Assembly: GCA_963733795.1 (NCBI GenBank)
Contig: CAVTED010000003.1
Span: 155,149-219,148 of the forward strand
Reading direction: 5' to 3'
DNA length: 64,000 nucleotides
Origin: an uncultured Acidobacteriaceae bacterium
GTDB lineage: Bacteria; Acidobacteriota; Terriglobia; Terriglobales; Acidobacteriaceae
A model generated the notes under the pieces. The model had not been told where the DNA came from, ran no database searches, and was given only the letters and a program-made list of their open reading frames with translations. This document shows positions 2,635 to 41,191 of this stretch, piece after piece. The first letter of the stretch is position 1; each line of letters starts with the position of its first letter. The position numbers and the translations under genes were made by a program.

Positions 2635-4274
2635 TTGGCGTTATTCTCTAGCTCGGCCTTCGCGCAGCTTGCTACACCTACGTTCGTGCTCGCGTCCAGC
2701 GGGTCTTTCTCCGCAACAAACGCCGTTTACGATCCCTTGTTAGGCCCATCTGGCTCAACTTTTTGTTGGTCAACAAACGGCACAACGCCGACAGCCACTG
2801 TTGCAGGCACGTGCGACTCCGGCTTCTATTCTTCGAATAATCAGGCAGGCTGCTACTTCGCTACTTCCGGAACTTGCAAGGCTATCGTCACCCAATCCGG
2901 TTTTACGAATAGCGCGGTGGCGACGGCCACCTACACCATTAGAAGGCGGGGGTGAGCAACCCGGTTCTGTCCCTACTCCAGTAAAGATCACCAGCGCCAC
3001 CACGAACATGATCACGAAGAGCCGCAAGCCGCCAATCAGAACGGGACAATCTATCTCTTCTTCTATAACGAAGGCATCGCCGGAGTCACGGTAGACAGCG
3101 GTGGGAACACGCGCATCATGATGAAGACGTGCAACCCCGGTTCCGTGAATTGTGCGGTGGGGAGCAACTGGACAGCTCCAACGTCGTCTGGTTTTTGCCA
3201 AAGCGGAGACCCCTTAACTGGATGTTTGTGGAATTCCAGCACTCCTTACGGAAATCAGGCGAACGGCAAGGGCGTCACGACGCAACGGAACCCTGCTCGT
3301 ATTTATCACCAGTTGGACGGCCCCGGTCAACAATACTCCTGCCGGCCTTACGGAATGCCGCTTACCCCTCAACGGTTCCTGGAATTGCTTTACGGTGGTG
3401 AGTCCATCCTTTCCCTCGCCCAACAATTTCGTAAACTCCACAACGAATGTCATCTCCATTGCGGCAGGCGAAACAGGGGTTACGGGACCGTGTTTTACTT
3501 CCGGTTGCGCCTTCATCAGCACAAAACAAGGCATCGCCGGAACCATCGGAAACATTTTCAGCTACGACGACGGGCTCACCTGGTCCGATCCAGTGACGAT
3601 TTCGACGGGATGCGGCTAGGCGGCTGCGCTTTCCATTCATCACCGAAGAACATGCCACGGTGCGGCTCCCCAATTCGATGAAGCTGATGAACTTCATGCG
3701 GCCCTCGGCGACCGCGCCGGTCAACGGTGGGCCTACACCCATCATGTTTCAGGAGTCGAGTAATTCTGGGAACGTCCTGGAGTGGATACACGAACGGAAG
3801 TTTACCTTCGGAAACGCCTCAAACCTTCCCCTGAGTCCCTGTTCTCCCACTCCCATGACGGGATGGATGGACGAGTTTCCTGAACCATCCGTCATCCAGG
3901 TTCCAAACAATCCGGCACTCTATACGGTGCTTTACGGAGAACGATTCTCCTGTCCCAGCCCCAGCGCCGCACATACCGAGTGGCAGATTGTGACCTTCAA
4001 CGGATCCAGCGTCTTCACCGGCAATGGATTAAATCTTCCACTCCCGCAAGTCCTAGACTTCAACACCATATCGACAAATCCCTGCGTAACGGGCTCGGCT
4101 AATCCGCATACCGCGTATTCCGATCTTGTGAAGCTGAATGCGACGCAGGCCATGATGTTCTACGAGTGCGGAACAACGGCGCCGCTGGAAGATATTTACG
4201 GAACGGTGATCAGTTACCCAGTCGGGGAAACGATGACTTCTGTGACATGGAACGGCGGAGTGGCTATTCAGTGA
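2635..4274 (+). pseudogene. secreted carbohydrate-active-like protein (chitobiase-C-like Ig module plus BNR/Asp-box), split over at least 4 frames
   Basis: Signal peptide (..LFVLALFSSSAFAQ). The ATPTF...SGFTNSAVATATYTI module is typical of CHB_HEX_C-type domains. The sequence continues in frames 2801..3094, 3118.., 3395..3619 (Asp-box SYDDGLTW) and 3660..4274. Confidence 0.5.
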
Positions 4275-4813
4275 GGCTTCTCTGCCCAGACACGGAATTC
4301 GTCAGTATTCACCGGCTTGCCATGCAGAATGTCGTCTGTTTTGACGTGATGGAGTTGAAGAATATTCCAGCCCGAAAGCAGTTCCAGCACACGGTCTTTG
4401 GTGGTGTAGTGCTCAACCATCGTCGGTTCGCTGTTCGCAGCGTAGGGAGTAAACAAAGCTCTACCGCCCAGAGCCAGCACTTCCCGAATATTGCAGGCCG
4501 TCTGCCGCGCAACGTCAAAAAAGGCTAAAACCAAGGCCGCACGTTCAAAGGCCAAATCAAACGGACCCTCGAAGGGAACCTCGGGAAAGGCGGCCACCGT
4601 CAACTCAACTCCGCCGCCGCAGCGAGTTTCGGCATATTGCACTGCGTCGGGATCGCGATCAAATCCCCACACCGAAAATCCTTCTTGATTCAAAAACCAG
4701 GCATTGTTTCCCGACCCACAGCCAACGTCCAATATGCGGGTTTCGCGGCGCGTATTTGTTGGTGCGAGTCGCCAAATACAAATGTGGCTACTTGATCGTG
4801 CGGACAGCGCCAT
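4268..4813 (-). CDS. class I SAM-dependent methyltransferase
   Basis: SAM motif I is ILDVGCGSGNNAWFL, followed by WGFDRD. The gene is antisense to the flanking phage genes. The N-terminus may be longer or frameshifted. Confidence 0.75.
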   Translation of the reverse strand: MALSARSSSHICIWRLAPTNTRRETRILDVGCGSGNNAWFLNQEGFSVWGFDRDPDAVQYAETRCGGGVELTVAAFPEVPFEGPFDLAFERAALVLAFFDVARQTACNIREVLALGGRALFTPYAANSEPTMVEHYTTKDRVLELLSGWNILQLHHVKTDDILHGKPVNTDEFRVWAEKPH

Positions 4814-4825
4814 CGTACTGGCATT

Positions 4826-5436
4826 TTGGCATCACTCATAAGCCCGGAATTATACATGCGCTTCCCCTTGGTTACCCGCGCCCACCACGAAACCGTAGTC
4901 CAGGCCATGAAACAGCAGATGGAGGGACTGGCGAAGCTGCTCTACCCGCGCGGCGTTCCCCCGGAATTCCAGTTGCGCTTGGGCATCCAGATCGAAGCCT
5001 CCGCCAACCAGTCGGAGCCGAGCCGGAACTGACGGACGACCAGAAAGCCATGGCCGAGATGAAAGCCCAGCAGGCCGCCGACCGCGCCCGCCTCGAACGT
5101 ATTCGCCGGACGCGGCCATCGCAACTCGGGCCTGTGTTTTCGGATCAGATGCGCAAGTGGGCTGGCAGAAGGGACGCATCCCACTTCGTCTGGTGCCCGG
5201 GCCATCTCCCGCTTCCGCCGTCTTCCCCCGCGCCGCAGCCGAGGCGCTCGACACAACTTCTGACGCATGAGCGCCACTCCCCAAAGTCTTGGAATGAGGG
5301 CGCACAGCCCAATGCCGGTCCGATTCGCGCCGAAATCACGCCTCCGAAAATTCCCCAGACCCAGGAGCCGACCGCCGAAGCTCCCGCCCAGGAATCGCCG
5401 GAAGACGCGATGTCAAAAAGTACGGCAAGCGGCTGA
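4826..5436 (+). pseudogene. hypothetical phage protein, at least one frame break
   Basis: ORF 4826..5032 (..MRFPLVTRAHHETVVQAMKQQMEG..) continues in the frame of 4756..5436 (..ELTDDQKAMAEMKAQQAADRARLE..). Confidence 0.3.
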
Positions 5437-7668
5437 TGGATGCCTGCATCAAGAAGCGCGAAGGCTGGCAGTGGAAGCGGCGCGGCATCGTCGAGAAAGT
5501 TTTCAAGAACAAGGAGAGTACAAGGGCAACCAGTACATCGGCTTTTATCCCGGCACCACCGACGCCTTCGACCCGATGCAGGAGTTCCAGAACTGGTCCG
5601 GCGCCGACTATAAAAACGCCGACCGCTCCATGGACCGCCGCCCGCACAACTTCTACCAGATGGTGGCCCGCGCCTACGTGGCCTCATGTGCTCGGAAGTT
5701 CCCAAAAGCCGCGCCACCCCGCTGAACGACGATCTCGAAGAGACCGCGAGACCGCCAAAGCCTACGACACCTGTCGAAGAGATCATCGAACGCGCCAACA
5801 AGATCAAGAGCCTGCTGCGGCAGGAGCTGATGGAGTTTTTTACCTCGGGCGGGTATTTCAAATTCACTCGCTATGTGGTCGATTCCGACCGCACCGGCAC
5901 CCACAAGCAGACCGTGTTGAAGCTCACGCAGAACGCGGAAATCCTGCCCGCGCGCTATCAGTGCTTTCACTGCGGCGTGGCCACTCCGGAAGATCAGGTT
6001 GTGGCCGGGGATTCGCTGGCCTGCCCCAACTGCGGCGCGCGCTTCAGCGGCGAGAATTACTTTCAGGGCTACTCCGCCGACGTTCCCCTGGCCGAAGAAA
6101 AACAAGGATGTGCCGAACGGAATGGTTCTCTGGGATGTGGTCGGGCCCATGCACATCGACACCGATCCGGACGCTCCCGACCTGGCTAACACCTGCCTTT
6201 TGAACTACGGCCTCGAGGTTCCGCTGGGCTGGTTGCGCATGACCTTCGACAAGTTTTGGGAGAAGTTGAGCGAAGGGCAGACCACCGGTACCGGCAATGA
6301 AATGGTGGAGCGGCAGTGGCGCGACATGCTGACCGCGCCCGCCGGGTATCAGCCGTGGTTTTCCGCCACCAACCAGTCGAAGCCCACCTACAACCGGGTC
6401 TGGATCCAGCCCATGCTCTTCGCGGAAATGGATCATGCGACCAAGCAGGAGTGCGACGAACTGCGACAGACGTTCCCCACCGGCTGCATGTTGGCTTACT
6501 GCGGCGATGTCGCCCTGTCGATTCGCAAGGCCAAGCTCACCGACGAGTGGACCTGGGGCGGACGCGACCAGAAAACCTACGGCCTTTATCCCACCCCGGC
6601 GGGCGATGCCATCGTTCCCGTGCAGGAGCGCATCAACGACTGCATTTCCAAGATCGACGAATACGCCGACCGGCTGGCCTGCGGCATCCTGCTGGCCAAC
6701 GGCGAGTACATCGACACCGCCGGGATGAACAACAAGGCCATGCTGCCCGGCGTGTTGAACGAAATTCGCGTCCGGCAGAACTCTGGCCGCTCTCCGACAT
6801 CAACCAGATGATCTTTCAGGTGAAAGGCGAAATCGACTCCGCTATCTTCACCTATCTCTCCCTGCTGAAGCAGGACATTGAACTGCTGGCCTCGACCCCG
6901 CCGCAGTTGATGGGAGTGGGAACCCAGGACGGCGTTGAAACTGCCTCGGGACAAGCGCAGCAGTTAGGTCAGGCGCAAACCAGATTGACTCTCGACTGGG
7001 ATTTGATCTGCGACGAGCACGCCGACGCCAGTGACAACGCTGTGCGCTGCGCCGCCAAGAACATGACCGAAAGCTGGCAGACGACGGTCGCCGACGAGTC
7101 CAAGGAATTCCGCACCAAGTACGTGCATCTCGACCAGATGAAAGGCTCGGTCCGCATCGAGCGCGACACCAATCAACTGTTTCCCATGACCGCCGCCGAC
7201 ATTCGCAACTGGTGGAGCGCCACCCTGCAAGACGGCAACGAGCAACTGGTGCAGATGCTTTTAGCCGAGCCCGAGAATATGGAAGCGGCGGTGCGCTTCG
7301 CCGGGGTGCCGGGACTGGTTCCGCCGCAGGGCGCGCTGCGCGGCAAGATGCTGCAAATCATCGCGCAACTGGTGTCGAACGCGCCCACCGAACAGCCCGA
7401 TCCGCAGAATCCGCAAGGCCCGCCGCTGGAACTTCCGTCGCTGGCTCCGACCTGGCTGCTGGCGACGAAATATCTCGACGACCTGCCCACCCTGATCAAA
7501 CTGATTCCCAACTGGGCGGCCAAGCACTGGGAACAGTTGAAGGATAACGAGCCGGGACTCAGGAATCTTCTGGCCTTTTATAAACAAGCCATCGTCTTCA
7601 ACAAGCAGTTGCAGGCCGAGATGCAGTTGACCGGCGACACCCCACAACCTCAAGGAGCGCAAGCATGA
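5436..7668 (+). pseudogene. putative portal protein (about 745 aa reconstructed from about 5 frames)
   Basis: Protein sequence can be followed across ORFs 5436.., 5267..5725, 5686..6189 (CxxC..CxxC ribbon), 5999..6811 and 6316..7668. Its size and its position just upstream of the scaffold-like and capsid-like genes suggest a portal, but there is no motif-level proof. Confidence 0.5.
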
Positions 7669-8912
7669 AACGAACCGAGCCCGTGATCTACTGTGACGCG
7701 AAGGGAGTGGAGCACGAAGCTCTGGTCTTCGCGGTCAATCCCCTCAACGAAGGCTATCTCTCGCTGGTCTACGTGGACCCCTCGAAACCCGACGCCGACA
7801 ACGTGGTCAAGGTCTTCGACGTGCGCCACATGAGTTCGATCAGTGAATTCCGGACAGTCAAAGACAGTTCCGGCCAGGACGCAGAGGAAGGCAATCCAGA
7901 CCTTCCCACTTATCACCTGAACTGCTGGAAGAATCTTTTCGAACATTCGAAGGCGTTGCCCTCCGACCATCCCGCCTACGACCATCCGCACCTGCCCACG
8001 ACCGACAAAGATGGCAAGCGCATCGAGCGGTCGCGGCCGGAGTATGACGCGCAGATTGAAGCGCATCAGGCTTCGACGCAGGCCGACGGCTACGCAGCGT
8101 CCAGCGAAGGAGAGCCGGAACCGCCGAAACGCCCGACCATCGCGGAATTGGACGCGATACTGAACGACCCTGTGGAATCCGCCGAAGGTTATCGTGAAGC
8201 CGGACGGATCAGTGAGCGCCCTGCCCGAACCTTCTGCTGCTCGATAAGGTTTTGCGACGAGCACGCCGACGCCAGTGACAACGCTGTGCGCTGCGCCGCC
8301 AAGAACATGACCGAAAGCTGGCAAACGACGGTCGCCGACGAGTCCAAGGAATTCCGCACCAAGTACGTGCATCTCGACCAGATGAAAGGCTCGGTCCGCA
8401 TCGAGCGCGACACCAATCAACTGTTTCCCATGACCGCCGCCGACATTCGCAACTGGTGGAGCGCCACCCTGCAAGACGGCAACGAGCAACTGGTGCAGAT
8501 GCTTTTAGCCGAGCCCCAGAATATGGAAGCGGCGGTGCGCTTCGCCGGGGTGCCGGGACTGGTTCCGCCGCAGGGCGCGCTGCGCGGCAAGATGCTGCAA
8601 ATCATCGCGCAACTGGTGTTGAATGCACTCACCGAACAGCCCGATCCGCAGAATCCGCAAGGCCCGCCGCTGGAACTTCCGTCGCTGGCTCCGACCTGGC
8701 TGCTGGCGACGAAATATCTCGACGACTTGCCCACCCTGATCAAACTGATTCCCAACTGGGCGGCCAAGCACTGGGAACAGTTGAAGGATAACGAGCCGGG
8801 ACTGAGGAATCTTCTGGCCTTTTATAAACAAGCCATCGTCTTCAACAAGCAGTTGCAGGCCGAGATGCAGTTGACCGGCGACACCCCACAACCTCAAGGA
8901 GCGCAAGCATGA
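7665..8912 (+). CDS. chimeric ORF: 191-aa-type phage gene (copy 1) fused to the duplicated portal C-terminus
   Basis: The N-terminal about 195 aa (MKRTEPVIYCDAKGVEHEAL..) match ORF 8909..9484. The C-terminal about 220 aa (DEHADASDNAVRCAAKN..GAQA) match the end of 6316..7668. Confidence 0.5.
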   Translation: MKRTEPVIYCDAKGVEHEALVFAVNPLNEGYLSLVYVDPSKPDADNVVKVFDVRHMSSISEFRTVKDSSGQDAEEGNPDLPTYHLNCWKNLFEHSKALPSDHPAYDHPHLPTTDKDGKRIERSRPEYDAQIEAHQASTQADGYAASSEGEPEPPKRPTIAELDAILNDPVESAEGYREAGRISERPARTFCCSIRFCDEHADASDNAVRCAAKNMTESWQTTVADESKEFRTKYVHLDQMKGSVRIERDTNQLFPMTAADIRNWWSATLQDGNEQLVQMLLAEPQNMEAAVRFAGVPGLVPPQGALRGKMLQIIAQLVLNALTEQPDPQNPQGPPLELPSLAPTWLLATKYLDDLPTLIKLIPNWAAKHWEQLKDNEPGLRNLLAFYKQAIVFNKQLQAEMQLTGDTPQPQGAQA

Positions 8913-9484
8913 AACGAACCGAGCCCGTGATCTACTGTGACGCGAAGGGAGTGGAGCACGAAGCTCTGGTCTTCGCGGTCAATCCCCTCAACGAAGGCTA
9001 TCTCTCGCTGGTCTACGTGGACCCCTCGAAACCCGACGCCGACAACGTGGTCAAGGTCTTCGACGTGCGCCACATGAGTTCGATCAGTGAATTCCGGACA
9101 GTCAAATACAGTTCCGGCCAGGACGCAGAGGAAGGCAATCCAGACCTTCCCACTTATCACCTGAACTGCTGGAAGAATCTTTTCGAACATTCGAAGGCGT
9201 TGCCCTCCGACCATCCCGCCTACTACCATCCGCACCTGCCCACGACCGACAAAGATGGCAAGCGCATCGAGCGGTCGCGGCCTGAGTATGACGCGCAGAT
9301 TGAAGCGCATCAGGCTTCGACGCAGGCCGACGGCTACGCAGCGTCCAGCGAAGGAGAGCCGGAACCGCCAAAACGCCCGACCATCGCGGAATTGGACGCG
9401 ATACTAACGACCCAATCCGCCGAAGGTTATCGTGAAGCCGGACGGATCAGTGAGCGCCCTGCCCGAACCTTCTGCTGTCGATAA
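8909..9484 (+). CDS. hypothetical phage protein (copy 2 of the duplicated gene)
   Basis: 191-aa ORF with an ATGA overlap with the preceding ORF; no recognisable motif. Confidence 0.55.
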   Translation: MKRTEPVIYCDAKGVEHEALVFAVNPLNEGYLSLVYVDPSKPDADNVVKVFDVRHMSSISEFRTVKYSSGQDAEEGNPDLPTYHLNCWKNLFEHSKALPSDHPAYYHPHLPTTDKDGKRIERSRPEYDAQIEAHQASTQADGYAASSEGEPEPPKRPTIAELDAILTTQSAEGYREAGRISERPARTFCCR

Positions 9485-9782
9485 GGTTGTGAGTATCGAG
9501 ACCAAGAACTACTCGGATGGCTCCAGCGCCACCGGACCCGCGCCACTTCCCGACCAGTCACCAGAACAACAGAAGGCCGCCGAAAGTGCCTCGGTTCCGT
9601 CTGCCGCCGACCTCGACGCGGATGCCGCCGAGAAAAACGCCGCAGAAGCGACCGCGGGAGACCAGCAGAAGGAAAGCTTGCTCCACAAGATCGGCGAACA
9701 CATCAAGCACGACGCCGAAGTGGTAGGAGAGGCCGCGGCCGAGATCGCCGCCAGCGGTCTGGGCGCGTTCCAGGACGAGTAG
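9432..9782 (+). CDS. acidic Ala/Glu-rich hypothetical protein
   Basis: 116-aa ORF with a GTG start, overlapping the end of 8909..9484 in another frame. Confidence 0.4.
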   Translation: MKPDGSVSALPEPSAVDKVVSIETKNYSDGSSATGPAPLPDQSPEQQKAAESASVPSAADLDADAAEKNAAEATAGDQQKESLLHKIGEHIKHDAEVVGEAAAEIAASGLGAFQDE

Positions 9783-9882
9783 CGTTTCGAAGTCAACCTT
9801 TCACCCAACCGCCCGCAGCCTGAGTGCTGCGGGCTTTTCATTGCCCGAAAAAGACTGACCGAAAAAAGAGAGGATCACGACT

Positions 9883-11486
9883 ATGCCTGATACTGCGGCC
9901 CCTAGCGCCCCAGCGGCTCCCGCTCCTGCAGCTACTCCCAGCGCACCTGCGCCGGCTCCAACGCCTGCCCCGGCTGTGCCTGCTTCCCCCAGTCCTGCGC
10001 CCACAGTCGAGAATTCTTCCTCGATCGCCGAAGCCTGGCAACGCGCCCAAGCCGAAGTTCCGGTCGGAGTCGAAGACGCGGAACTCGAAGCTCCCGCACC
10101 CGAAGCGGCAGCGCCCCAAGCTCAGGATGACGATCAACCCGACGCTGCGCCTGCGCCCGCCGACGAAGTTGAGGTCCAGGCCGGCGACCAGCCCGAGGTG
10201 CAACTCGACCCCGACCTGGCATTGCCGGAAATCGCTCTCGAAGACGGCGACTTTGGCCCCAAGGAACTGGGAGACTTCCTCAAGAAAGACGCCGCGGTCG
10301 ACAAGTTCTTCAACGACCATCCTGAAGTGAAGAACCGCATCTTCGGCATGGCCCGGCGGGATTCGGAAACTCGCGCCATCCGCGAGATCGCGCCCACGGT
10401 GGAAATCGCGCAGGAGATGCAGCGCGGCCATAAACTCTTCCACGACATCGACAACCGCTTCCTGACTGCCACCACGCCCGAAGGCTTCAAGAGCTTCATG
10501 GATATGTGGGTGGAACAGGCTCTGATCACCGACGACAAAGGTCAGCCATCAGAGGCGAGGACGGAAAATACAAAATCCATCCCGCGCTCACCAGCGTCAT
10601 CGAGAACATTCACTCCAACCGCAACACCTATCTTCTCGGAGAGATGGCGAAAGACGGCAAGATTCCCCCGCCCATCGCCGACTCCACCCTGAAGGTCATC
10701 GATTTCTTAAGCAAGTCCGCGGATGAACGGGTTCAGGAAGCCGCGCAGATCATCAAGGAGGCACTCTCGCCGTCCTCCTCGGCGCAAGGGGAACTGCCCG
10801 ACGAACTGAAGCCGTACTCGGAATCCCTCAAGGCGAAGAAGAGGGAGCTCAACGAACGAGCCGAAGCGCAGACTCGCCAACAGCGCGAATCCGAGCAAAC
10901 CGCCCGCGTCGAAGCGCTACGCCGCGCCGATTCGAAAGCAGCCGAATCGTGCCTGGCGCAAGTGAATGCCGTACTGAAAAAGGCAGGACTGACGGACTAC
11001 GAGCAGAAGGCCGCCCGCGGCAAAATCGGCGACCTCATCGACCAGAAACTGAAAGCGAATCCCACCTACCAATCGGCCCGAGATCGCCTGGAAGAGGAAA
11101 CGCTGGACGCCGCCCGCGAAAAGGCCATCTCCAAACTGGTGCTGCGTACACCCAGGAGATTTTAGGCCCCATCGTGCGCGACACCATCCGCGAAGCCACT
11201 CAAGGCAAAGTTGCCCGTCAAGCCGACACTGACCGGAGAGTCGCCGACCAGCAAGCCGCGAGCCGCACCGATGCCCGCGGCGGCAGCGTTACCTCCAGTC
11301 CCGGTGGGCCCATGACCACGGCGCAGATCGAAGCCGCCATCGTCAAGGAATACCAGGATGCGCATAACGGAGAGACCTCCCGCTCCCTCATCACGACTGA
11401 GATGTGGAAGCGGATGAATGCCAGTCCGGGCCGACGCGACTGCCCGAAAGACCCGAAACACTTTTCACAAGGAGACTTTTTCACCC
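9883..11486 (+). pseudogene. scaffolding-like protein (Pro/Ala-rich N-terminus, coiled-coil body), about 2 frame breaks; 3' end approximate
   Basis: An RBS (agagagga) lies before the ATG at 9883. The sequence runs through ORFs 9883..10692, 10506..11165 and 10949... It is rich in charged, helical segments and sits directly upstream of the capsid candidate. No stop occurs in any forward frame between 11404 and 11653. Confidence 0.45.
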
Positions 11487-12778
11487 ATGCCCGCACTTAC
11501 CGCACAACAGGCGCTTCCCCTGCAACTGGAAGCTTTTTCCCCTCAACATTGCCCGCGCTATCGAGGCCGACGCGGAACTCTCGCGCTACCTTGGCAACGG
11601 CAACGGCGGAGCCACCAAGGTTTCGCTGCGTTCTTTCCGTGCCCGGCTTTTGACCGCGCACGCTGGCGCAGTCGCCCAGTTCGATCTGGACAACGGATCG
11701 ATGCCCATGGGCGATGGCGACAAGTGGGATCAGTTCCTGTTTTCGCCCGTCGCCTGGACCAAACCGATTCAGTACAGCCAACTGGCGCAACTGGTCGGGG
11801 AGGGTGAGAACGTCGCCACCAACAACTCCGTCACCGAAACCATCCAGGGCGTCATCGAGCAGGTACAGATGTACCGCGACATGTTCCTGCAGGGCCCCGG
11901 CGACGGATCGCTGGCCTCGATCGATTCGACCACCGGCGGCAACTTCATCAACCTGCGCTCGACCATCACCGGCACCATCGATGGCCGCGGCGCGCACCTG
12001 GTGAAAGCGCAGCAGAAGGTGCAGATCATGTCGAACGCCGCCGGCGGCTACGTCCTCCGCGGCTCCTGCACCATCCAGAACGTGTTCGCTTCGCTGGGCT
12101 CGACTCAGCAGATTCAGGTGGACGCGATTCCGGCAGGCGTGGTGGCGGGCGATCTGGTAATCGTCGACGGCGCCGCTCCCGGCGCTCCGCAGTTCATCAA
12201 CGGCATTCCCTTCTTCGTCAACACCGCAACGCTCGGCAACGTGTACGGAATTTCCCGCGCACTGCCGTATGTGGTGGCCAGCGGCTTGAACCTCGCCAAT
12301 ACGGCGCAGGTCACGAAGCCGGTGTTCATCGTCGCGGAAAACCAGATCAAGCAGCGGTTGGGCAAAAAAGGGACTGAAAAACCAGTTCTACCAGACCTAC
12401 CCCTCGCAGCTTCAGGCGCTGGCCGAGCTGGCCTTCACCGACACCATCGTGCCGCTGCAGGGTGGCAAGGCGGGAAGCTACGACTTCATGTTCCGCGAGT
12501 TCACCATCAATGGCCGCATGGTCATGGAGAACGTGCACGCGGATCAGACCCGCTGGGATCTGCTTCTGAAAGAAGCGTGGAACACGATCAAGTGGGGCCC
12601 GGGCATGTTCTGGTTCAAAAACCGTGGCGGCCAAACCGTGTTTCAGGTGATGGACCCGACCACCGGCGGAATCACCGTGCAGGAGTTGATGTTCTACTGT
12701 GTTGCAGAGCAATGGTTTGTAAATAACCCCATGGCGCAGGGCGGAGTGCAACAAGCCAAAGTGCCGCAGGGTAACTGA
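11487..12778 (+). pseudogene. putative major capsid protein (about 430 aa, 2 frame breaks)
   Basis: A strong RBS (AAGGAG) lies 8 nt before the ATG at 11487. The sequence continues 11418-frame to 11404-frame to 12449..12778. The breaks fall at the T5C4 run 11534-11542 and the A6G3 run 12364-12372. The capsid call rests on position after the scaffold-like gene. Confidence 0.55.
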
Positions 12779-12855
12779 AGCCCTGATTTGAATTGAACTG
12801 AGCGCGTCTTCTGTTACGCTGTCGGAGAGCAGACAACAGGAGGCGCGAAAGTTTT

Positions 12856-13630: not shown

Positions 13631-13647
13631 ACCTCTTTTTCTCCATC

Positions 13648-14392: not shown

Positions 14393-14490
14393 CCGCCTCT
14401 CGCTCGGGCCGGACGCGTGATCAACGAACTCGCCAAAAAATCTGGAATCAAGGGCCACGTAGGCTAACCACACTCGAAAGGAACGAACGC

Positions 14491-16867: not shown

Positions 16868-16881
16868 AGAAACAACACACT

Positions 16882-29368: not shown

Positions 29369-29472
29369 AAAGTTGCGTCGTCGCCATTTCGGGGGAGGTG
29401 GTGACGGTGCTCTGCAGAGGGAGTCGGAGTCGGCGCAACACCGGCGGCTCCGACCCTCTGCCAGAATTGGGA

Positions 29473-30531: not shown

Positions 30532-30552
30532 GTCGGTCTCCTCGCGAACAAT

Positions 30553-32287: not shown

Positions 32288-32419
32288 GGTCATTCTCCTT
32301 GTATTTGGGATTCGACGCGCAGCGCGCGGCGGTTGAGTTCTTGAGCTTTTTGAGAGCCGGGTCTAAGTCTTATGGCGGGAAATGGTAGCTAACTAGTGGA
32401 GTAGACGACTACTTCCAGA

Positions 32420-32481
32420 CGAGAGATCGGAGCGCCGGATCGGGCAGACGACGAATGGGGAACGGCGGTCGAGAGATCGGA
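32420..32481 (+). promoter_or_regulatory. pair of 12-bp direct repeats (CGAGAGATCGGA) 50 bp apart in a divergent intergenic region
   Basis: Perfect copies at 32420-32431 and 32470-32481, inside the about 470-bp non-coding gap between the antisense block and the rightward small genes. Confidence 0.35.
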
Positions 32482-32864
32482 CGCAGACAACCAGAAACGA
32501 GGAAGACTGGGTAGGGATTGGACGAAGCCATCGGGCTTCCTATACAGGCTTGGTGGTCAGGGCTGCCTGGGTGGGCCTAACACTCAAAGTGGCCCGTATT
32601 GCTTTACGAGCCTAATCGTATACGCGGGGGGCGCGCATGTCAAGGGACGCATTTCATGGCAAAAGTTATTGCGTGGGGGCGGCGCATCGTGCTAGGGTGC
32701 GCATACGGCCGAAAAAAGGTCTTTGATCGTGATTTTTTGTGAAAGAGTGGGCGCAAAGGGGCCGCAATGACTAACAGCAAGCTCTCCGCGAAAGAACGGA
32801 AGCTGCGCCAGTCGCGCTGCGAAAGCCCGTCGGGCCAAAGTAAAAGCAGCAAAGGGCAAATGAG

Positions 32865-33128
32865 ATGACTCAGCAAGAATCGGATGCGGTTGTGGGGCGA
32901 GTGTTCCGAGAGCACAAAGCCGCAAAGGAACACCTGGCTAGGATCGAGAGTGAAATCGCAAGAGCGAGAGGCCAGATCCAATCATTCCTGACTACGGATC
33001 TCAATAATCTGCAAACTGCAAAACTGCCAGAGTGTCTTGCAGGCGCACAGCTTGGGAAGCTTCTGGACGATTACAAATCGGTATTCAGTGAAGTGCTCCG
33101 CCTAGATGGCGAAGTTACAGAGTTCTGA
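32865..33128 (+). CDS. hypothetical coiled-coil protein
   Basis: 87-aa ORF; its ATG overlaps a 33-codon upstream ORF (atgagATG). Confidence 0.45.
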   Translation: MTQQESDAVVGRVFREHKAAKEHLARIESEIARARGQIQSFLTTDLNNLQTAKLPECLAGAQLGKLLDDYKSVFSEVLRLDGEVTEF

Positions 33129-33232
33129 CGGAATACTGTTTCGCAAAAGCACCGGTCGTGACGGCGACACCAACCAGTGCCCAAGCGCGTTAGGCTAAAC
33201 AAAAGAAGGCAGTCCACCTGAAGAATGACCCG

Positions 33233-33615
33233 TTAATTGTGCTCTGCTCGAATCCTTTGCACAATTTTTGTTTTCAATTCCTTGCCATCCTTGCGCTTGA
33301 TGTACATGTGCTTCTGATCCAATCGAACGTCGATGGCATCATTCACAATGAAGTCCGATGGCTCGTAGCTCCAGCGAGTTCTAGGCCAATATGAGCCGAC
33401 GTAGATCATCTCCCGATTTGAACGCTGAAGCGATATTCGACATCCGTAACGGTGACAATCGAACCATTGTAGGAGTTTTCGACTTCTCGGTTGGAACGTG
33501 CGTCGGTTATGGCCAACAGTTTCCCGGTCTGGTACTGAGCTGCAGAGGCGACGACGGCCAAAAGAAGGAAGCCAACGGTTTTCGCTAGGCTCTGCACGGG
33601 CAGGGACTTTATCAT
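33233..33615 (-). pseudogene. small secreted hypothetical protein (one frame break near 33415)
   Basis: Signal peptide MIKSLPVQSLAKTVGFLLLAVVASAAQ (ORF 33406..33615) continues in the frame of 33233..33634. Confidence 0.4.
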
Positions 33616-33963
33616 GACCCCATCGAGGAAGCAATGATGCCAGACGCGAGAGCCACTTTCGGGCCTACGAGTTGGCGGAATACATCCCCAGGGCAGCCCT
33701 GTTTCGGGGAGTCGAGATCGTTTCCTACTGGGACGATTTTGGGGTTCCTGCGGACATGATCTGCCTGTTTAACCCAGAGAATGGAGCCTGCGGAATTCGG
33801 AGGGTAGTTTCGGCATCGGGGATTTAGTCAGGAAGTGCTGCCTTACAGGGGACATGCGCGAAGCGAGCGTAATCACCGAAATCCAGAACGCCATCACGGA
33901 CCTGCTGCAGGCGGATCAGGGGCGGCAGGTGGACATCGCGGAGTTGGAGAGGTTGGCAGGGCT

Positions 33964-34272
33964 ATGAACCAGATCGGGCAGCTTCTTAACGACGCATTTA
34001 TTGGTGGCGTATTCATTGGGGCAGTTCTGCTGGGGTTCTTGATCGGCGTTGTGATCGGGTGGAAGCTCCGTGGTGAACCTGTGATCAATCCGACTGACCC
34101 ACGCACGCGGCCCAGCGATTACCCCGTTAGCAATGCGGGATTCGGACCCGACTATCCCTTCAACGAGCGCCCGTTTCCGGAACGAAGTAATAAAAGTTTG
34201 GCTAGTTCCTCACAATTTGCCCGCGCCCACGCGGATGCCCAGAAGGCCGTCCTTCCTCCCTTCCGTCCTTAG
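33964..34272 (+). CDS. small membrane protein (one TM; holin-size)
   Basis: The ATG at 33964 is in frame with 33835..34272. The TM segment is FIGGVFIGAVLLGFLIGVVIGW. An ATGA overlap links it to a 37-codon upstream ORF (33854..33967). Confidence 0.45.
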   Translation: MNQIGQLLNDAFIGGVFIGAVLLGFLIGVVIGWKLRGEPVINPTDPRTRPSDYPVSNAGFGPDYPFNERPFPERSNKSLASSSQFARAHADAQKAVLPPFRP

Positions 34273-34564
34273 GTCCGAATCCTCCGCAACCGGAAGGAGC
34301 CCAGCCGAAACCGCATCCCCTCGCCAGCGCGACATCCTCGGCGAGATGACTCACGCCGCTGCCCTAGCCCGGCACGTCGAACAAGCCTCCGCCCGCATTG
34401 TGCAAGGACTCCCGGCGAATCCGAACCGCCACCCCGGAGCAGACCTTCGGCAACGTGCTCGATGTAGTGCACACCGGGAGCCCTGCAGCCGCCATTGCCG
34501 CGCACCCGAAGAAGAACGCTCGCGGCTGATTTCCGAAGCGCAGGATTCGGCCACCCAGTGGATC

Positions 34565-35602
34565 ATGGCGCATAACGGAAAAGTGGTCGTGCATGGGAAA
34601 GTGATGCTCGCGCATGATATGAAAGGTGCGCAGAGCCTTGCGGCGAAAATCGTGAATGACGAGGTAGAAGGGCATGACCAGGAAAACGCCGAAGCCGCCG
34701 CTGGGATGCCTGCCGCCGGGGACAAGGTGCCGCGCGGGAAACAGTCTGGTGGCTCTGACCGCTCAAGGGCTGGTCGAGTATCGAATCGATCCGGGAACGG
34801 GCGAAGTGCGGACGCTGCACCCGGCCAGGGAGATAACGCTGGCGGAGATGCGGCAGCGGTTCCCGAAACTGGACCTGCAGTCGGCGGCATCGACGCGGAC
34901 AGCGGTCGGGTCATCACTCACTCCACCGACGACCTCGACGAAGCCCAACAAACAGCCACCGCTGCGGCGCCGGAACTCGAAGACAAACTCCAGCAAGTTG
35001 CGGCCTCTGTCCCCGGCGTTAGGGTCCACGGCGTCAGGCCAGAGAAAGACAAGGATCGAGCCCAAAGGAAAACGGAAGCCGACGACAAACCGGTAAACAC
35101 CCACTCCGACCTGCTGGCGGGACGTTTGGTAGCGGACTCCACCGAGGCCAAGATGTCGCCGTGGAGGCCCTCAAGAATTCCGCGCCCGTCATCGACGAGG
35201 AAGACTCCTTCCAGAACGGCGATCCCGACTATGGCTTCCGCTCACACGACCTGCAGGTGGCCTTAGGAAAAGGCGACACTTCGGCGGAAGTGCAGATTGT
35301 CCAAAGAAGTAGCGGAGATCGACGAAGACACCCACCCCACTTACGAACGAGGCAGAGATGCCGAAGCCGACGGCGACACCGAAACCGCCGAGCAAGCCAA
35401 AGCGGAGAACCGGGACGCGCACGATGCCGCCATGGAGAAATTCAACGAGCGAAACGGGGACAAAAGCGCGAAGCTCCGCGAACTGCTGAAGCAGGCAGGC
35501 TTTGAAGTAACCGGAGAGCCGGTGCGATTGGGCGGACATGCATTTCTGCCGATCAAAGAGAGCGATGATAAGACTAGTCCCACTGACGCTGAAGCAGGCT
35601 AA
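34565..35602 (+). pseudogene. RelA/SpoT-like nucleotidyltransferase domain protein (at least 4 frame breaks; start uncertain)
   Basis: Reconstructed sequence: ..VRVHGVRPEKDKDRAQRK..DLLAGRLV (35108-35131) ..DYGFRSHDLQV (35230-35259) ..AEVQIV.. ..HPTYE (35329-35343). It parallels the small-alarmone-synthetase blocks RvK..S...K / DixGlRi / GYrSxHl / vEiQiRT / H..YK, though imperfectly. Confidence 0.4.
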
Positions 35603-36038
35603 CGCTTTGGTCGCACGTTTGCACCGGCACCACAAGCCGATTCAGGGGCACCGTTTTACGATTGGCGCGCAGAACGGTTCCCTGATCGGCGCGGCAATCG
35701 TGGGAAGGCCAGGAGCGCAGCAGACCGAGCAATACTTCGTTGCTGAAGTGACGCGACTGGTGAGCGATGGAACGCCGAACGTTTGCTCCATGCTCTACGC
35801 AGCTTGTGCCCGAGCGGCAGAGGCAATGGGCTACGAATCCATCCAAACATTCATCCTTGAAAGCGAGCCGGGCACATCCCTCAGGGCTGCTGGATGGAAA
35901 TTTGTGCACATGACCGAAGGTGGCGATCACAACCGGCCTTCGAGAAAAAGGCGCAGGCGCGACCGAGCCGGAATGCCCAAAACAAAAGTGGGAAAAGCGA
36001 TTCCCGAATGCCCCGCAGTAAAAAATCTTCCCAACTGA
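35565..36038 (+). CDS. GNAT-fold, XF1762-family-like phage protein
   Basis: MIRLVPLTLKQANALVARLHRHHKP..GHRFTIGA..GSLIGAAIVGRP...EVTRLVSDGTPNVCSMLYAACARAAEAMGY..IQTF. I recall this pattern from XF1762-type proteins found next to phage terminases. The ORF is intact. Confidence 0.5.
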   Translation: MIRLVPLTLKQANALVARLHRHHKPIQGHRFTIGAQNGSLIGAAIVGRPGAQQTEQYFVAEVTRLVSDGTPNVCSMLYAACARAAEAMGYESIQTFILESEPGTSLRAAGWKFVHMTEGGDHNRPSRKRRRRDRAGMPKTKVGKAIPECPAVKNLPN

Positions 36039-36516
36039 CCGAACTGGAGTTGGCCTGTGTCGCCAACTACCGAGGCAACCAGGTCGAAGCCGCCAAAGCT
36101 GCGGGCGTGAAGTGCGCCAAAAAGCAAGCCAGCGTGATCTTCAACCGGCCGAGTAAGAGAGCGGTGTCGAAAAGAAAGTGGCTGCGGCCATCACCAAAAG
36201 TGGGGAGAACTTAGGGGAAGCGATTACGCTGTCCCGCAATAAAATCATCAACCGTCTGGATCGGCTGTCCGAGCGCGCCGATTCGGACTCCGTCAAAGTA
36301 TCCGCGCTTCGAGAACTCGTCGACATTTGGGGCCTGAGAGCCAAAGATGGCAAGGGTGATCTCTTCGCGGGCTGGACCGAAGAAGACCTCCAGTACTACA
36401 TTCGCACCGGGGGTGCCATTCCGCCTCGTTTCCGATCCCCTCTCGGGGAATGGCGAAAGCGACCGAGAGTTTCTTCGGCTCCAACGAGCCCGTCAACTCC
36501 AGCAAAGTCAGGCTGA
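36008..36516 (+). pseudogene. terS: terminase small subunit (one frame break near 36170)
   Basis: The N-terminal HTH-like segment is LTELELACVANYRGNQVEAAKAAGVKCAKKQASVIFNRP. The sequence continues in ORF 36178..36516, immediately upstream of terL. Confidence 0.55.
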
Positions 36517-36561
36517 GCAGGCCCAGCAGGCGTCCAGCTTCTGGACCAGGCTGGCGATGCT

Positions 36562-38255
36562 GTGCGCGATCCCTACCTGTGGGCCACTCGCTACACCGAG
36601 ACGTACAACCCGCACTGGGTGGAGGAGCAGCGGCCCTCGCCCTACGAACCCTTCCCTTCATTCGAAGAGTATCCCCACATCTATGACCTGTTTCAGGCGT
36701 TCGCGCTGGAGCGGATTCACTTCATCGAAAAGTCGCGCGACGTGATGGCGACCTGGGGATGCGTGGCCTACCTCACCAACAAGGCCATGATCGTGCCTGC
36801 CCGCGAAGTTCTTTTCCAGACGCAAAAACTCGACAAGGCCAAGCAGCTCATCAAGTATGCGCGCTGCCTTTACGCAGCGCCAGCCGCAGTGGCTCAAAGA
36901 CGCCTTCCCTCTGGGCAAGCACCAGTCCGATACCAAGCTCACCTTCCAGCATGGTGGCGGGGTGTACGGGATTCCGGGCGGCTCCGATCAGATCCGCTCT
37001 TACCATCCCTGGGGCTATCTGAACGACGAGAGCTCGTTTCAGCCGGACGCCGGCGAGTGCTACAACGAGGCGCTGGCGGCGGTCGCAGGACCGATCATCT
37101 TCAACTCTTCGGCGGGCCCGGGCTGGTTCGCCGACGTCACCCACGGAGTGATTCTTGACGCCGAAGAGTAAAGTCGCGGAAGCGCTGGCGGTGGCGAAGA
37201 CTGTGCCGGCGCAGGATCCCGTTCCTGTCCGCCGCGGCTACACCGTGCGCCGCACCAGCGGCGGCATCCCCGTCCATCGCGTGCACTACAGCGTTATGCC
37301 CTCGCGCGATCCGGAACAAACTCCAGCATGGAGAAGGGCGGAGCGTTCCACCTACACCTCGCAGGCCGCCTGGGACCGCGAACAGGAAATCGTACACAAC
37401 GCCGGCGGCGGCGAGCTGGTCTTTGCCGACACGCTGATCACCTACTGGAAAAAGATCGTCATCACCGCGCCGGAGTGGCGGCCCGATGAGCGCTGGCACG
37501 TGGAGTCAGGCTTTGACCACGGGAAGACGAACGCGACCGCCTTCGAGCGCTACTACGTCGACTACGATGGCGTGATCTATTTCTGCGGCGAGTATTACCA
37601 GCCGGGAAGAGAAGTCTGGCAGCACGCGCCGGTTCTGAAAACGATGTCGGATATCCGCAAGGTGGAAGTAGCCTACGCCGATCCGACCATCTTCGATGCC
37701 ACCATGCAGCAGTCGAATCAGCCCAGCCAGCCGGGCAAAGCCGCGGAGCGCGCGAAATCGATCAACAATCTTTACGTCGAGCAAGGCATTCAACTCTTCA
37801 GCCCGTTCGTAGGCGATCGCTCTGACATCAGTTTCGCCGCCCGGTTGCTCATGCACTGGTCGAATCTCGACCGGCGCGAACCCACCGTCAAGATCGTCTG
37901 CCGCTTCCCCAATGTCGACGTGCCGCGCCCTGGGCTGCACAACTGGGATTGCCCAAACCTGCTGTGGGAGCTGATGCGCACCCGCCGGCAGAAACTCACC
38001 GCGCAACAGGCGCTGACCCGGAACAAGAGCGAGGCCATCGTCGACAAGGACAACCACGCGAGAGACGCCATGAAGTACGGGCTCATGTCCCATCCCGAGC
38101 CCACCGTGAAATCGCTGCGGGAGAAAATCGCCGAAGAGTTGAAACCGCTGACCGACGCCGGAGACTACACCTCTGCCATGATCCGCTACAACCAGCAGTT
38201 GAGCGTGAGCAAGCCCAAGCCGATCCGGATTGGGAGAAGGCAGCCGAAGCGCTAG
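36562..38255 (+). pseudogene. terL: terminase large subunit (2 frame breaks near 36880 and 37160)
   Basis: ATPase part: IHFIEKSRDVMATWG (Walker-A-region analogue) and GYLNDESSF (Walker B DE). Nuclease part: SGFDHGKTN, VAYADPTIF and IVDKDNHARDAMKYG, the Asp triad typical of terminase RNase-H-like nucleases. Confidence 0.85.
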
Positions 38256-38281
38256 CACCTCCGGTTACCCCAAAAAATACA

Positions 38282-38310
38282 TTGATTCCTGTAGATATTC
38301 TAGGCATTAT
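38282..38310 (+). promoter_or_regulatory. sigma70-like promoter candidate (TTGATT-17-CATTAT)
   Basis: Read in the AT-richer spacer after terL; it would drive 38468 and the recombinase genes. Confidence 0.3.
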
Positions 38311-38467
38311 TCCAAGCAAGGGAGGAGGAGGGGAGCTGTATCCTCTGGCGCGCCCGAGTAGAAAAGAAAAGCCAGCCCTCGGTAAAAGGGCCGGCTCCGG
38401 GAAGGGATTCGGGAAAGCTGCTGTTTCTGGCTGGTTACCGTAAACCCTAACACAACCGGAGCCTTGA

Positions 38468-38968
38468 ATGACTGAGAATTTACCGCCCAGTGCTGCGGAA
38501 GTCGACGCCCTTGCCGAAGAGATGCTCACCTTAAAGGGCAAGGTCGGCTCCATTCTGGAGAAAGCCCAGCAGGACTCCAAACCTCACCTCGACCGGATGG
38601 GAGAACTGAAGGAAGTGGCCGAACGCTGGATCCGCGCATTCGGTTCCGCTCACGCCGAGAAATCGAAACTCCTGCACGGCATCCTCTACGAAATCATGGG
38701 CACGTTTGGTATGTCGACGTCGATCGATGCGGCGGCGGTCGAGGCGTTCCGGAAGGGCCTGGTCAAATCCAAGCAGGCAAAGTTGCTGAAGAAGCTTTTC
38801 ACTAAGACTGTGCGCTTCGACCTGAATCCCGACGGTGCGGAGATCGTGAAAGGCGTGACCCTGAAACCGCGACTGGTGGCGTTGTGGGCGAAGTGCTTTG
38901 TGAACCAGTCGAAGACGCCGGTGATCACCCCGCGGTTGAAGAAGAAAGAGAATGGGGTGGCCGCGTAA
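38468..38968 (+). CDS. hypothetical protein (loosely Gam/host-nuclease-inhibitor-like)
   Basis: Intact 166-aa ORF. The N-terminal coiled coil and ..EKSKLLHGILYE.. are reminiscent of Mu Gam-type proteins; this is a weak resemblance. Confidence 0.45.
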   Translation: MTENLPPSAAEVDALAEEMLTLKGKVGSILEKAQQDSKPHLDRMGELKEVAERWIRAFGSAHAEKSKLLHGILYEIMGTFGMSTSIDAAAVEAFRKGLVKSKQAKLLKKLFTKTVRFDLNPDGAEIVKGVTLKPRLVALWAKCFVNQSKTPVITPRLKKKENGVAA

Positions 38969-39068
38969 AAACGGTAGAACGTTTTCCACAGTGACGCACA
39001 TACCGCCTAAGCAGTAGTCTTCCGTTCACCCGCAGTCCCAGTTAGTTTTCCCAGCCCCGGACAACTGA

Positions 39069-39878
39069 ATGAAAGCCCCAGTCTCCCTGACCTCCGAGGA
39101 GCTCCTCGCGGTTCTCGCCAAGGCGCGCACGCGACGGTTGCGCGACTGGGCCATCCTCGTCCTGCTCTATTGGCACGGATATCGGGTGAGCGAACTGGTC
39201 CGCAGCTCGACCAGGCAGCTAGGGCTGTTCTTCACTCACGAGAAGGCGCAGCAACGCTGTGAAGAATGCCCCGGTTCCTCCGTCCAGGAGGTTGTGCGCA
39301 AAATCAAACACAAGCCCCGCACCTGTTACCTCGTGACTTCCCCCGTGGCGATTGAGCGGCCCGGCCTGACCGTGGACGCCGTCGAGGGCGCCGAGATCAC
39401 CGTCCAGAGGCTCAAAGGCTCCATGCGCACCACCCAGAACCTGCAGGACCACGAAAACCCCCTGCTCGACGAAAAACAGGCTTGGCGGGAGTGGCTGGCC
39501 GAGCGTCCGAGGCTCGGGAAGAAGGGTGCCGCAAAAATGTCCCAAAAAGACGTTTTGGGACATTTCCCATCGGATGAGGTCTTTAACATCTCCCGCCGCC
39601 AGGTCCACCGGCTGTTTCAGCGCTATGCGACCGAGGCCGGACTACCCCGGCGAAAAAGGCACCCCCACTGCCTCAAACACACGATCGGAACTGATCTTGT
39701 CGAATCCGGGCTACCCCTGCCCAAGGTCCAAGTGCATCTCGGTCACAAGTCTCTCGCCTCGACCGGAAAGTACACCTTGCCCAAAGAAGACGAGGTCTCG
39801 CGCGCCGTCGGTCGCGCCATCCGCGCAAAGTCAGAACTGCGACAATTGCAGCAGCAACCCCTCTTTCCCGCCGATTAG
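39069..39878 (+). CDS. tyrosine recombinase (XerC/D-like) with a large insertion and non-canonical HxxK
   Basis: HGYRVSEL (Arg I), VQRLKGS (Lys), HPHCLKHT (HxxK instead of HxxR), HLGHKSLASTGKY (His, Tyr). The 269-aa ORF is intact. Confidence 0.8.
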   Translation: MKAPVSLTSEELLAVLAKARTRRLRDWAILVLLYWHGYRVSELVRSSTRQLGLFFTHEKAQQRCEECPGSSVQEVVRKIKHKPRTCYLVTSPVAIERPGLTVDAVEGAEITVQRLKGSMRTTQNLQDHENPLLDEKQAWREWLAERPRLGKKGAAKMSQKDVLGHFPSDEVFNISRRQVHRLFQRYATEAGLPRRKRHPHCLKHTIGTDLVESGLPLPKVQVHLGHKSLASTGKYTLPKEDEVSRAVGRAIRAKSELRQLQQQPLFPAD

Positions 39879-39879
39879 T

Positions 39880-39898
39880 CTGTTCTGTTTTCGTAACA
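39880..39898 (+). repeat. 19-bp direct repeat copy 1 (CTGTTCTGTTTTCGTAACA)
   Basis: Matches 40068-40086 at 17 of 19 positions and shares the core TTTCGTAA with the octamer array at 16831. Confidence 0.8.
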
Positions 39899-40067
39899 CT
39901 CCTCCCTTCGTCGTCCTCGCGCTCCCGCAATTCTGCACACTCCTCTGGTAAGGCTTCGTTCCCGGGGCTTCTTTACCCCTTGCGCCTCAACTTACTTCTG
40001 TAGCAGAATTTAGCCTCTTAGCGGCGGCCTTTCCCCATCCTGCCGCCGCTCGGCCCTAAGCCCACAT

Positions 40068-40086
40068 TTGTTCGGTTTTCGTAACA
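40068..40086 (+). repeat. 19-bp direct repeat copy 2 (TTGTTCGGTTTTCGTAACA)
   Basis: See copy 1; it lies 130 nt upstream of the integrase ATG. Confidence 0.8.
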
Positions 40087-40217
40087 GCGGAGAGGCCCGT
40101 GCGCAAGAAGTCTCTGTCTGTTGTACAAACCGCAGCACCGTTCCCCGCGCGGCCAAAGGCCTCCCCCACTCCCCTGGGCATATCGATTGCCCATCTTGTG
40201 AACGCTCGCGCGCGCGG

Positions 40218-41191
40218 ATGCTCGAACCTCAGGCCCTGTCTACTCTCCGGTTTCCCGAAGCTGCGGAGGTATGGTTTCACTCCCATACCTTGCACGTGGA
40301 ACCAGGAACCGTCCGCCACTACACCAACTGCATTCGCGCGCTCACCAAATTCTTTGCCCAGTTGCGCCTCGACCAAGTTCACATCGGCCACTTCGAGCAG
40401 TACCAGCGCATGCGCTCCGCGGGCGACGGGCTGCGGAAGGCGGGACCGAGTTTGATCAACCACGAACTGAACACGCTCTCGCAGATCCTGACGCGGGCCA
40501 ACCTGTGGGCGCCGCTGGCCGCCAACTACAAACCCCTGCGCCTGCCGCGGCCCACGGTCGGCTGCGCCATTCCGGAAGAGGATGAGCGACGCCTCTTCCG
40601 CGCCGCCGAGTCCAACCCCCGCTGGAAGATTGCCTACTGCTCGCGCTGATCACCGCCAACACGACGGCGGGACCGAGCGAAATCCGCCATTTGACCATGG
40701 GCGACGTTGACCTGGCCACGCCGGCGATCCGCATTCTCGAAGGCGTGAAGAACGAATACCGGAGAAGGACCATTCCACTGAATCAGCCGGCGGCCTGGGC
40801 CGTGAAGGAACTGGTCAAGCGCGCGAAGGAGATGGGCGCGGTCGAGCCGCAGCACTACCTGCTGCCGCACCGGGCGAGAAACGGGGAGACGGGATTCGAC
40901 GTGACGCGGCCGATCTCGAGCTGGAAGGGAAGCTGGAACCGGCTGCGGATCGCCGCCGGGATGCCGCATTTGCGCCGGTACGACCTGCGACACCATGCCA
41001 TCACCAAACTCCTCGAGGACGAGAACGTCAGCGAGCGCACCGTGATCGAACTGGCCGGGCACGTCTCCCGGCAGATGCTGGAGCGTTACTCCCATATCCG
41101 CATGCGGACCAAGCGGGAAGCGGTCGACGCCTTGGCGAAGAAGGGATCGCGGAACGTCGGAGGGGCGAATCTGGTGTTGATCAAAAAATGA
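40218..41191 (+). pseudogene. int: tyrosine integrase (single 1-nt frame break near 40640; possibly functional if that is a sequencing error)
   Basis: The ATG at 40218 is in frame with 40068..40649, and the sequence continues in 40691..41191. Catalytic motifs are YDLRHHAITKL, LAGHVSRQMLERYSH. Reading through the break gives ..RWKIAYCCALITANTTAGPSEIRHL... Confidence 0.85.

Follow-up and report, generated by a model that had tools for sequence, protein, structure and literature searches.

The window analyzed here, that is, the full stretch of 64,000 nucleotides (nt) at C3:155149-219148 in the genome of an uncultured Acidobacteriaceae bacterium (G000), contains the right part of a prophage integrated at a tRNA gene, followed by 22 kb of chromosome. 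Many genes of the prophage are split by changes of reading frame, and these frame breaks, their distribution and their origin are our subject; most likely, they are an artefact of the assembly and not a property of the prophage. The genome comprises 3,510,080 bases in five contigs of 0.29-1.34 Mb, with a GC content of ~57%; its estimated completeness is 74.6%, and the genomes of its relatives in the genus are 4-8 Mb.

The ends of the element are marked by a 40-nt perfect direct repeat, located with blastn at positions 41528-41567 of the window and at C3:126330-126369. Because this att repeat recurs perfectly, we assign the integrated element to C3:126370-196676 (70.3 kb). The right copy overlaps a tRNA-Met gene; a tRNA was also looked for at the left copy (C3:126330-126369), and none is there.

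Window 1..41527, plus strand: right part of the prophage (41.5 kb of the 70.3 kb; a further 28.8 kb lies to the left of the window).
Window 41528..41567, plus strand: attR repeat (blastn), overlapping tRNA-Met at 41530-41605 (ARAGORN).

When viral contigs were scanned for the pattern of the intact open reading frame (ORF) at 37170-38252, 23 related loci that share 40-68% identity were identified, and two complete relatives, G043 (80,460 bp) and G044 (69,003 bp, with terminal repeats), were used for comparison. The genes between 0.75 and 38.2 kb of the window are colinear with those of G043 and G044; no large deletions were seen, and the gene order agrees with that of the intact relatives across 37 kb. 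The element has the features of a tailed-phage prophage at a tRNA gene, that is, att repeats, a tRNA-side integrase, portal and capsid genes (recognized only by resemblance in the Atlas) and terminase genes (recognized only by weak PHROG matches). Most likely, the tRNA-Met gene of the organism harbours a prophage of 70 kb that is complete and probably functional; this probably intact prophage belongs to a little-described group of 69-80 kb phages with core proteins that escape both Pfam and PHROGs.

We mapped the frame breaks with a purpose-written protein-to-DNA alignment that permits changes of frame, using as references 19 non-redundant proteins from intact relatives (viral records G043 and G044 and loci L010, L011, L015 and L017). 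A break was called robust if each of the flanking segments has at least 15 aligned residues at an identity of at least 30%; otherwise, it was called tentative. Between 2.6 and 41.2 kb we located 31 robust and 5 tentative breaks; 30 of the robust breaks were identified by the frameshift-aware alignment and one, in an integrase gene, by tblastn. The features involved are as follows (lengths in amino acids, aa).

5353..7659, plus strand: portal-like gene, homologue of a 798-aa G043 protein; breaks at 5430, 5519, 5677, 6105-6107 and 6775-6778, tentative breaks at 5742 and 5762.
9804..11437, plus strand: counterpart of a 546-aa G043 protein, broken at 10548 and 11126 and tentatively at 9860.
11487..12775, plus strand: major-capsid-like gene, 70% identical to its 434-aa counterpart in G043; broken at the T5C4 run (11543/11545) and at the A6G3 run (12363/12365).
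13221..14464, plus strand: GroES/Cpn10-like gene (Cpn10 in Pfam, E 7.6e-13), broken at 13376, then the homologue of a 257-aa protein, broken at 13863, 14328 and 14408.
15021..16767, plus strand: two genes whose G043 counterparts have 386 and 257 aa, with three breaks (15560, 16440 and 16721).
18151..20901, plus strand: counterpart of a 900-aa G043 protein, with an out-of-frame stretch between two compensating breaks (18888 and 19075).
19076..27863, plus strand: break-free stretch of 8.8 kb (~1680 aligned codons, no robust breaks).
29620..30492, minus strand: second integrase-like gene, broken at 29925 and 30074 (relative to L017); Phage_integrase and Phage_int_SAM_3 are each matched by a different piece (Pfam).
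34183..35578, plus strand: homologue of a 479-497-aa L010/L011 protein; six breaks at 34251, 34316, 34428, 34505, 35152 and 35300, on which both references agree.
35511..36463, plus strand: piece of a Mom-like DNA-modification gene at 35511-36035 (phrog_1384, E 4.3e-32, profile positions 16-171 of 245), then a gene broken at 36163.
36494..38255, plus strand: two adjacent terminase-like genes, the first broken at 36538 and 36876-36878, the second (37155-38255) intact.
39069..41188, plus strand: intact integrase gene at 39069-39878 and the tRNA-side integrase gene at 40014-41188 (both Phage_integrase in Pfam), the latter broken at ~40646-40658, where a 501-aa L017 protein is matched in two frames (tblastn).

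The portal breaks are placed at identical sites by the G043 and G044 references. The density of breaks is highest in the portal gene (seven in 1.35 kb) and at 34.2-35.3 kb (six in 1.1 kb); no robust breaks occur between 37173 and 40640. At the rate of the other aligned parts of the prophage (~2.3 per kb), ~12 breaks would be expected over the ~1680 codons of 19.1-27.9 kb; the tentative break at 24216 that lies inside this break-free stretch is supported by 6 of 28 identities.

The first-pass annotation of the window, which followed protein sequence from frame to frame by inspection, had estimated 35-40 breaks between 2.6 and 41.2 kb. The portal breaks it placed near 5520, 5690, 6100 and 6790 map to 5519, 5677, 6105-6107 and 6775-6778; those it placed in the capsid gene at the T5C4 and A6G3 runs, in terL near 36880 and in the integrase gene near 40640 are likewise found, at 11543/11545 and 12363/12365, 36876-36878 and ~40646-40658 (tblastn). 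The clean island described at 20.9-26.7 kb is real and wider, extending from 19076 to 27863 without a robust break. A second terL break near 37160 is withdrawn, as this is a natural gene junction: all 19 of the 19 relatives with both ORFs show a stop, then (or overlapping it) a separate start, with varying spacing.

The breaks are not accompanied by in-frame stops: none was found in 6296 aligned codons of the prophage. The 30 aligned breaks fall into two frame classes, 18 that resemble a missing base and 12 that resemble an extra base. As also suspected earlier, several are located at short homopolymers; runs of at least five bases are within 10 nt of 6 of the 23 breaks mapped with G043 proteins, as compared with 3.6% of 3000 random positions (binomial p 1.4e-4), and all six of these run-associated breaks belong to the extra-base class (five were called as a single extra base). 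Inspection of the break contexts, by eye only, identified no common sequence motif. At the DNA level, 4.7-14.4 kb of the window matches 4 of 40 related genomes, in each case weakly and over no more than 191 nt, and nothing in the phage collection, so indels in the prophage could not be called exactly from DNA alignments; one of the four genomes, G040, is unpublished, and none of our claims draws on it.

We then asked how the rest of the genome compares, using a frame model that requires no references: a three-periodic, fifth-order Markov model trained on 1024 long ORFs of the same genome and decoded by a seven-state Viterbi algorithm (six frames plus non-coding) across all contigs. A strict candidate is a frame switch on the same strand in which the new frame starts at least 36 nt ahead of the stop of the old frame. 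The model yields false positives, that is, some flagged pairs are ordinary neighbour genes (e.g., STAS beside an anti-sigma kinase), so the 252 strict candidates that it identifies over 3.51 Mb are not a count of errors. Within the window, 14 strict candidates are located in 2.6-41.2 kb and one in 41.6-64 kb (p = 0.01); by this single frame-aware method, the contrast between the prophage and the chromosomal part that had been noticed by eye persists. The whole prophage contains 18 strict candidates, or 0.256 per kb as compared with 0.068 elsewhere (3.8-fold; Poisson p 3e-6), only 4 of them in its left 31 kb. The candidates are clustered throughout the genome: 14 of 353 10-kb bins have at least four (2.2 expected from a Poisson distribution), and 23 clusters have at least three candidates, whereas 500 uniform simulations gave 7.3 such clusters on average and never more than 15. 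The cluster in the prophage is the largest, with 11 candidates over 13.4 kb, approximately twice the next largest.

From six 20-kb chromosomal regions flagged by the frame model, we scanned 79 adjacent pieces with Pfam, and pieces in these regions match consecutive parts of single profiles. Aconitase (acnA) is found in four pieces (profile positions 4-113, 110-224, 224-317 and 331-463), FtsW in two (3-143 and 151-354), MurG in two (the N-terminal domain and the C-terminal domain) and an amino-acid permease in two (1-117 and 117-421); Mfd is in four or five pieces, YjeF in about five and an outer-membrane barrel in six; Der, MurC, FtsQ, an asparaginase, an MFS transporter and a GT2 enzyme are each in two. 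The ftsW frame, open for 207 aa here, extends over 362-371 aa in 9 of 10 relatives (in the tenth, the contig ends within it), and the aconitase frame, open for 644 aa here, extends over 906-1062 aa in 8 of 10. Exact alignment identifies four breaks in aconitase, one in murG and no stops. Alignment of the DNA with that of two relatives reveals the chromosomal breaks as single gained or lost bases, mostly unlike their neighbours and mostly outside runs; the candidates outside the prophage are not linked to homopolymers (6% vs 8.7% at random). The earlier view that the chromosome is spared therefore holds within the window and fails elsewhere, where clusters of candidates break acnA, mfd, der, ftsW, murG, murC and ftsQ. 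The 22-kb clean flank was too small as a control; the rest of the genome is the decisive one.

In model bacteria, ftsW, murG, murC, ftsQ, der, acnA and mfd are essential. Because no living cell could have lost all seven of these genes, the assembly must contain patches of uncorrected indels; the same type of break thus occurs in genes that the cell requires and that relatives carry whole. The breaks in the prophage share the character of those in the chromosome, that is, they are single-base events without stops, several per gene. Indels without accompanying nonsense changes (0 stops beside 30 breaks) are also characteristic of an artefact: natural mutation at 4 to 10 substitutions per indel would be expected to leave 4 to 10 stops, and their absence has a probability of 0.015 to 3e-5. 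The 8.8 kb inside the prophage that are break-free argue against a cause that affects the element as a whole. We conclude with considerable confidence that the frame breaks in the prophage are uncorrected single-base insertion/deletion errors in the assembly consensus that occur in patches genome-wide; the first-pass preference for consensus or indel error over ordinary decay is supported by the same damage in essential chromosomal genes. The errors would be located in patches of ~1 to 13 kb across the whole genome, with the structural-gene module of the prophage as the largest patch. The contig sizes and the completeness, our only basis on this point, suggest an assembly from error-prone long reads of a metagenome, and the patches may be stretches of poor, mixed or unpolished read support.

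The literature describes small-indel frameshifts as a weakness of long-read metagenome assemblies (10.1101/2021.08.23.457338; PMC9262707). The pattern that we observe resembles the long-read (meta)genome indel errors that are addressed by frameshift correctors such as proovframe and by short-read polishing: single-base indels split genes into adjacent pieces in different frames, nonsense changes are absent, essential genes are affected and the completeness is low (74.6%) despite very long contigs. It differs in that the breaks are strongly clustered (23 clusters vs ~7 expected) instead of evenly spread, and in that outside the prophage they have no tie to homopolymers (6% vs 8.7% at random). 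The aconitase of another assembly from the same genus is also in four frame-shifted pieces (G003:C2:140025-141534); this class of artefact is, therefore, not unique to the present genome.

Several points weigh against consensus error as the explanation. The indel errors are deduced from the deposited sequence, and a long-read origin is suggested only by five contigs of 0.29-1.34 Mb together with a completeness of 74.6%. The prophage is hit 3.8-fold harder than the rest of the genome, and its cluster is approximately twice the next largest; some factor linked to the prophage may increase the number of errors. Runs of at least five bases are the site of a quarter of the breaks in the prophage, which also fits slippage in vivo. 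Rearrangement that looks real is present, in the form of a 2173-nt repeat copy, a tandem duplication with copies that differ mainly by substitutions and three integrase genes. Finally, at two substitutions per indel the absence of stops would be unsurprising (P 0.12).

The excess in the prophage could be due to chance among the ~23 patches, or to a variable element being covered by reads less well or by a mixture of them. An origin of the excess in the biology of the phage is unlikely in our judgement; here, abundant DNA carrying Mom-type adenine modification would degrade base-calling, or diverged coexisting variants would be merged in the consensus. If it were true, the map of breaks would be the trace of a phage population that is active, modified or polymorphic. 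Three causes had been proposed for the breaks in the first-pass annotation; among these, lower or mixed support is plausible if it acts in patches, modification of the phage DNA is not needed as an explanation and a cryptic prophage is the least likely.

In that last case, the prophage would be genuinely decaying, with real single-base indels, and only the chromosomal clusters would be assembly errors. The highest candidate rate and the largest cluster in the genome are in the prophage, 6 of 23 breaks are at runs of at least five bases, two of the three integrase genes are broken, a 2173-nt repeat inside the element has a 100% identical copy elsewhere on the contig and the copies of a tandem duplication are 12 substitutions apart; these observations would all be compatible with decay. 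The element also resembles decaying cryptic prophages (e.g., those of Escherichia coli K-12) in that it is integrated next to a tRNA gene, has many split genes, integrase genes among them, and contains an inserted repeat. However, decaying prophages such as these have typically undergone deletions and nonsense mutations and lost modules. The present element is full length relative to its 69-80 kb relatives, with gene order kept over 37 kb and without large deletions; its att repeats are perfect over 40 nt; and the absence of stops in 6296 codons beside 30 breaks has the low probability given above (0.015 to 3e-5 at 4 to 10 substitutions per indel). Thus, gene loss, degraded att sites and nonsense mutations are not found, and one 2173-nt insertion and one tandem duplication are. 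Decay also accounts poorly for seven breaks in 1.35 kb with 8.8 kb untouched nearby, and a second cause is unneeded when the same type of break is an artefact in essential genes of the same assembly. We consider a decaying prophage quite unlikely.

Modification of the phage DNA could account for the excess of errors in the prophage if replicating or packaged DNA dominated the reads, as base-calling over the prophage would then be degraded. The Mom-like piece at 35511-36035 (phrog_1384, E 4.3e-32) would provide the enzyme, the candidate rate is 3.8 times that of the rest of the genome and a methyltransferase gene is also present:

4271..4813, minus strand: S-adenosylmethionine (SAM)-dependent methyltransferase (Pfam).

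Equal clusters are located, however, in housekeeping genes of the chromosome, which modification by the phage would not be expected to affect. Modification along a whole phage genome would leave no gaps of the kind seen here, that is, 8.8 kb without breaks and a left 31 kb with only 4 of the 18 candidates; nor is a common motif apparent at the breaks (by eye only). As the cause of the excess in the prophage, modified DNA is very unlikely. Biological recoding, that is, programmed ribosomal frameshifts or an unusual genetic code, deserves scarcely any credence: nothing beyond the breaks themselves speaks for it, the frames are uninterrupted at every tested site in relatives of 40-70% protein identity, no in-frame stops are available for reassignment and the sole conserved frame change (~37160) is a stop followed by the start of the next gene with varying spacing in 19 of 19 relatives. 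A programmed frameshift is accordingly rejected, the frame change not being conserved in relatives at any tested break site.

With uncorrected consensus indels as the explanation, users of the genome are warned that gene calls, pseudogene counts, completeness and verdicts of a 'defective prophage' are wrong in the affected patches; this prophage should not be scored as cryptic on the present evidence.

The annotation of the prophage is sparse. PHROGs names a family for 5 of 150 ORF pieces and Pfam for 12 of 119 (E ≤0.01); the named families are those of the three integrase genes, the Cpn10/GroES-like protein, a 2'-5' RNA ligase-like domain, the methyltransferase and the Mom-like DNA-modification protein. 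For the portal, capsid and terminase, neither PHROGs nor Pfam names a family in the broken ORF pieces; of the 17 intact G043 proteins, PHROGs assigns a family to four and Pfam to two. The portal-like gene has no match in Pfam or PHROGs, and its intact G043 homologue resembles P22/SU10-type portals in the Atlas. The intact G043 homologue of the capsid resembles Atlas clusters named major capsid or SU10_MCP, and the capsid frame is open for 429-441 aa in five of five related viral records; no match was obtained when viral contigs were scanned for the pattern of the capsid piece. The terminase labels are derived from weak matches, to phrog_2 for the first gene (E 4.9e-6, on the G043 homologue) and to phrog_5653 for the second (E 7e-4), and Pfam recognizes neither gene. 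Throughout the phage group, two separate adjacent genes of ~260 aa and ~365 aa apparently encode the terminase-like function, at 36494-38255 of the window as well as at 19 related loci.

Relatives (L035:7556-15016 in G043, and the L007 and L009-L010 loci) encode giant proteins of 2324-2895 aa, in which a 2'-5' RNA ligase-like domain is present together with a region similar to phrog_21 ('portal protein') in its C-terminal part (E 2.6e-72); window 24673-28222 holds only shorter ORFs that are homologous to these giant proteins. The adjacent block at 28200-34100 consists mostly of minus-strand ORFs with an atypical coding signal and breaks the colinearity with relatives; it may be a nested mobile element. 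The integrase gene in this block is ~70% identical in DNA sequence to the tRNA-side integrase gene and has the opposite orientation.

The tandem duplication is located at 7009-9482 (plus strand), with copies at 7009-8245 and 8253-9482 of a ~1244-nt unit that differ by 12 substitutions and 3 gaps. The unit spans the C-terminus of the portal and the next gene, so that residues 574-783 of the G043 protein match twice; the duplication is absent from G043 and G044, and it may be real or may represent two phage variants assembled in series. The 2173-nt repeat is in the left arm of the prophage at C3:138155-140327 (window -16994 to -14822), with its 100% identical copy at C3:577415-579587; it is probably an insertion sequence. 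At 14893-14985, the window is of low complexity, with repeated TTTTTAATTAC-like units followed by a run of 21 C and an AC-rich tract, and the surrounding intergenic gap is ~430 nt longer than in G043; this stretch could be a natural hypervariable tract or junk from reads or an assembly join.

In the 22 kb of chromosome to the right of the tRNA, long frames are open and Pfam profiles are matched from end to end (e.g., RsmH, positions 2-309 of 309). The 30 kb of G006 around the homologue of the one broken gene provide only two syntenic genes (782 aligned codons), so we judged this part by its long open frames, its full-length Pfam matches and the frame model. The long genes described earlier as intact are so, and the single break reported near 43650 is found at ~43654:

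43042..44560, plus strand: chromosomal gene, labelled GT-C in the first-pass annotation; one break at ~43654 beside a T4 run, open frame of 319 aa vs 604 aa in the G006 homologue; no Pfam match.

An in-frame stop at 43024 in the alignment of the GT-C gene was rejected as a nonsense change; it is located in a low-complexity stretch upstream of the start codon. Further to the right, window 50674-50785 contains a chromosomal tandem array of 7-nt units (CAGACCT, CAGACCG and CAGACTT variants), which either immediately precedes an ORF or forms part of its start.

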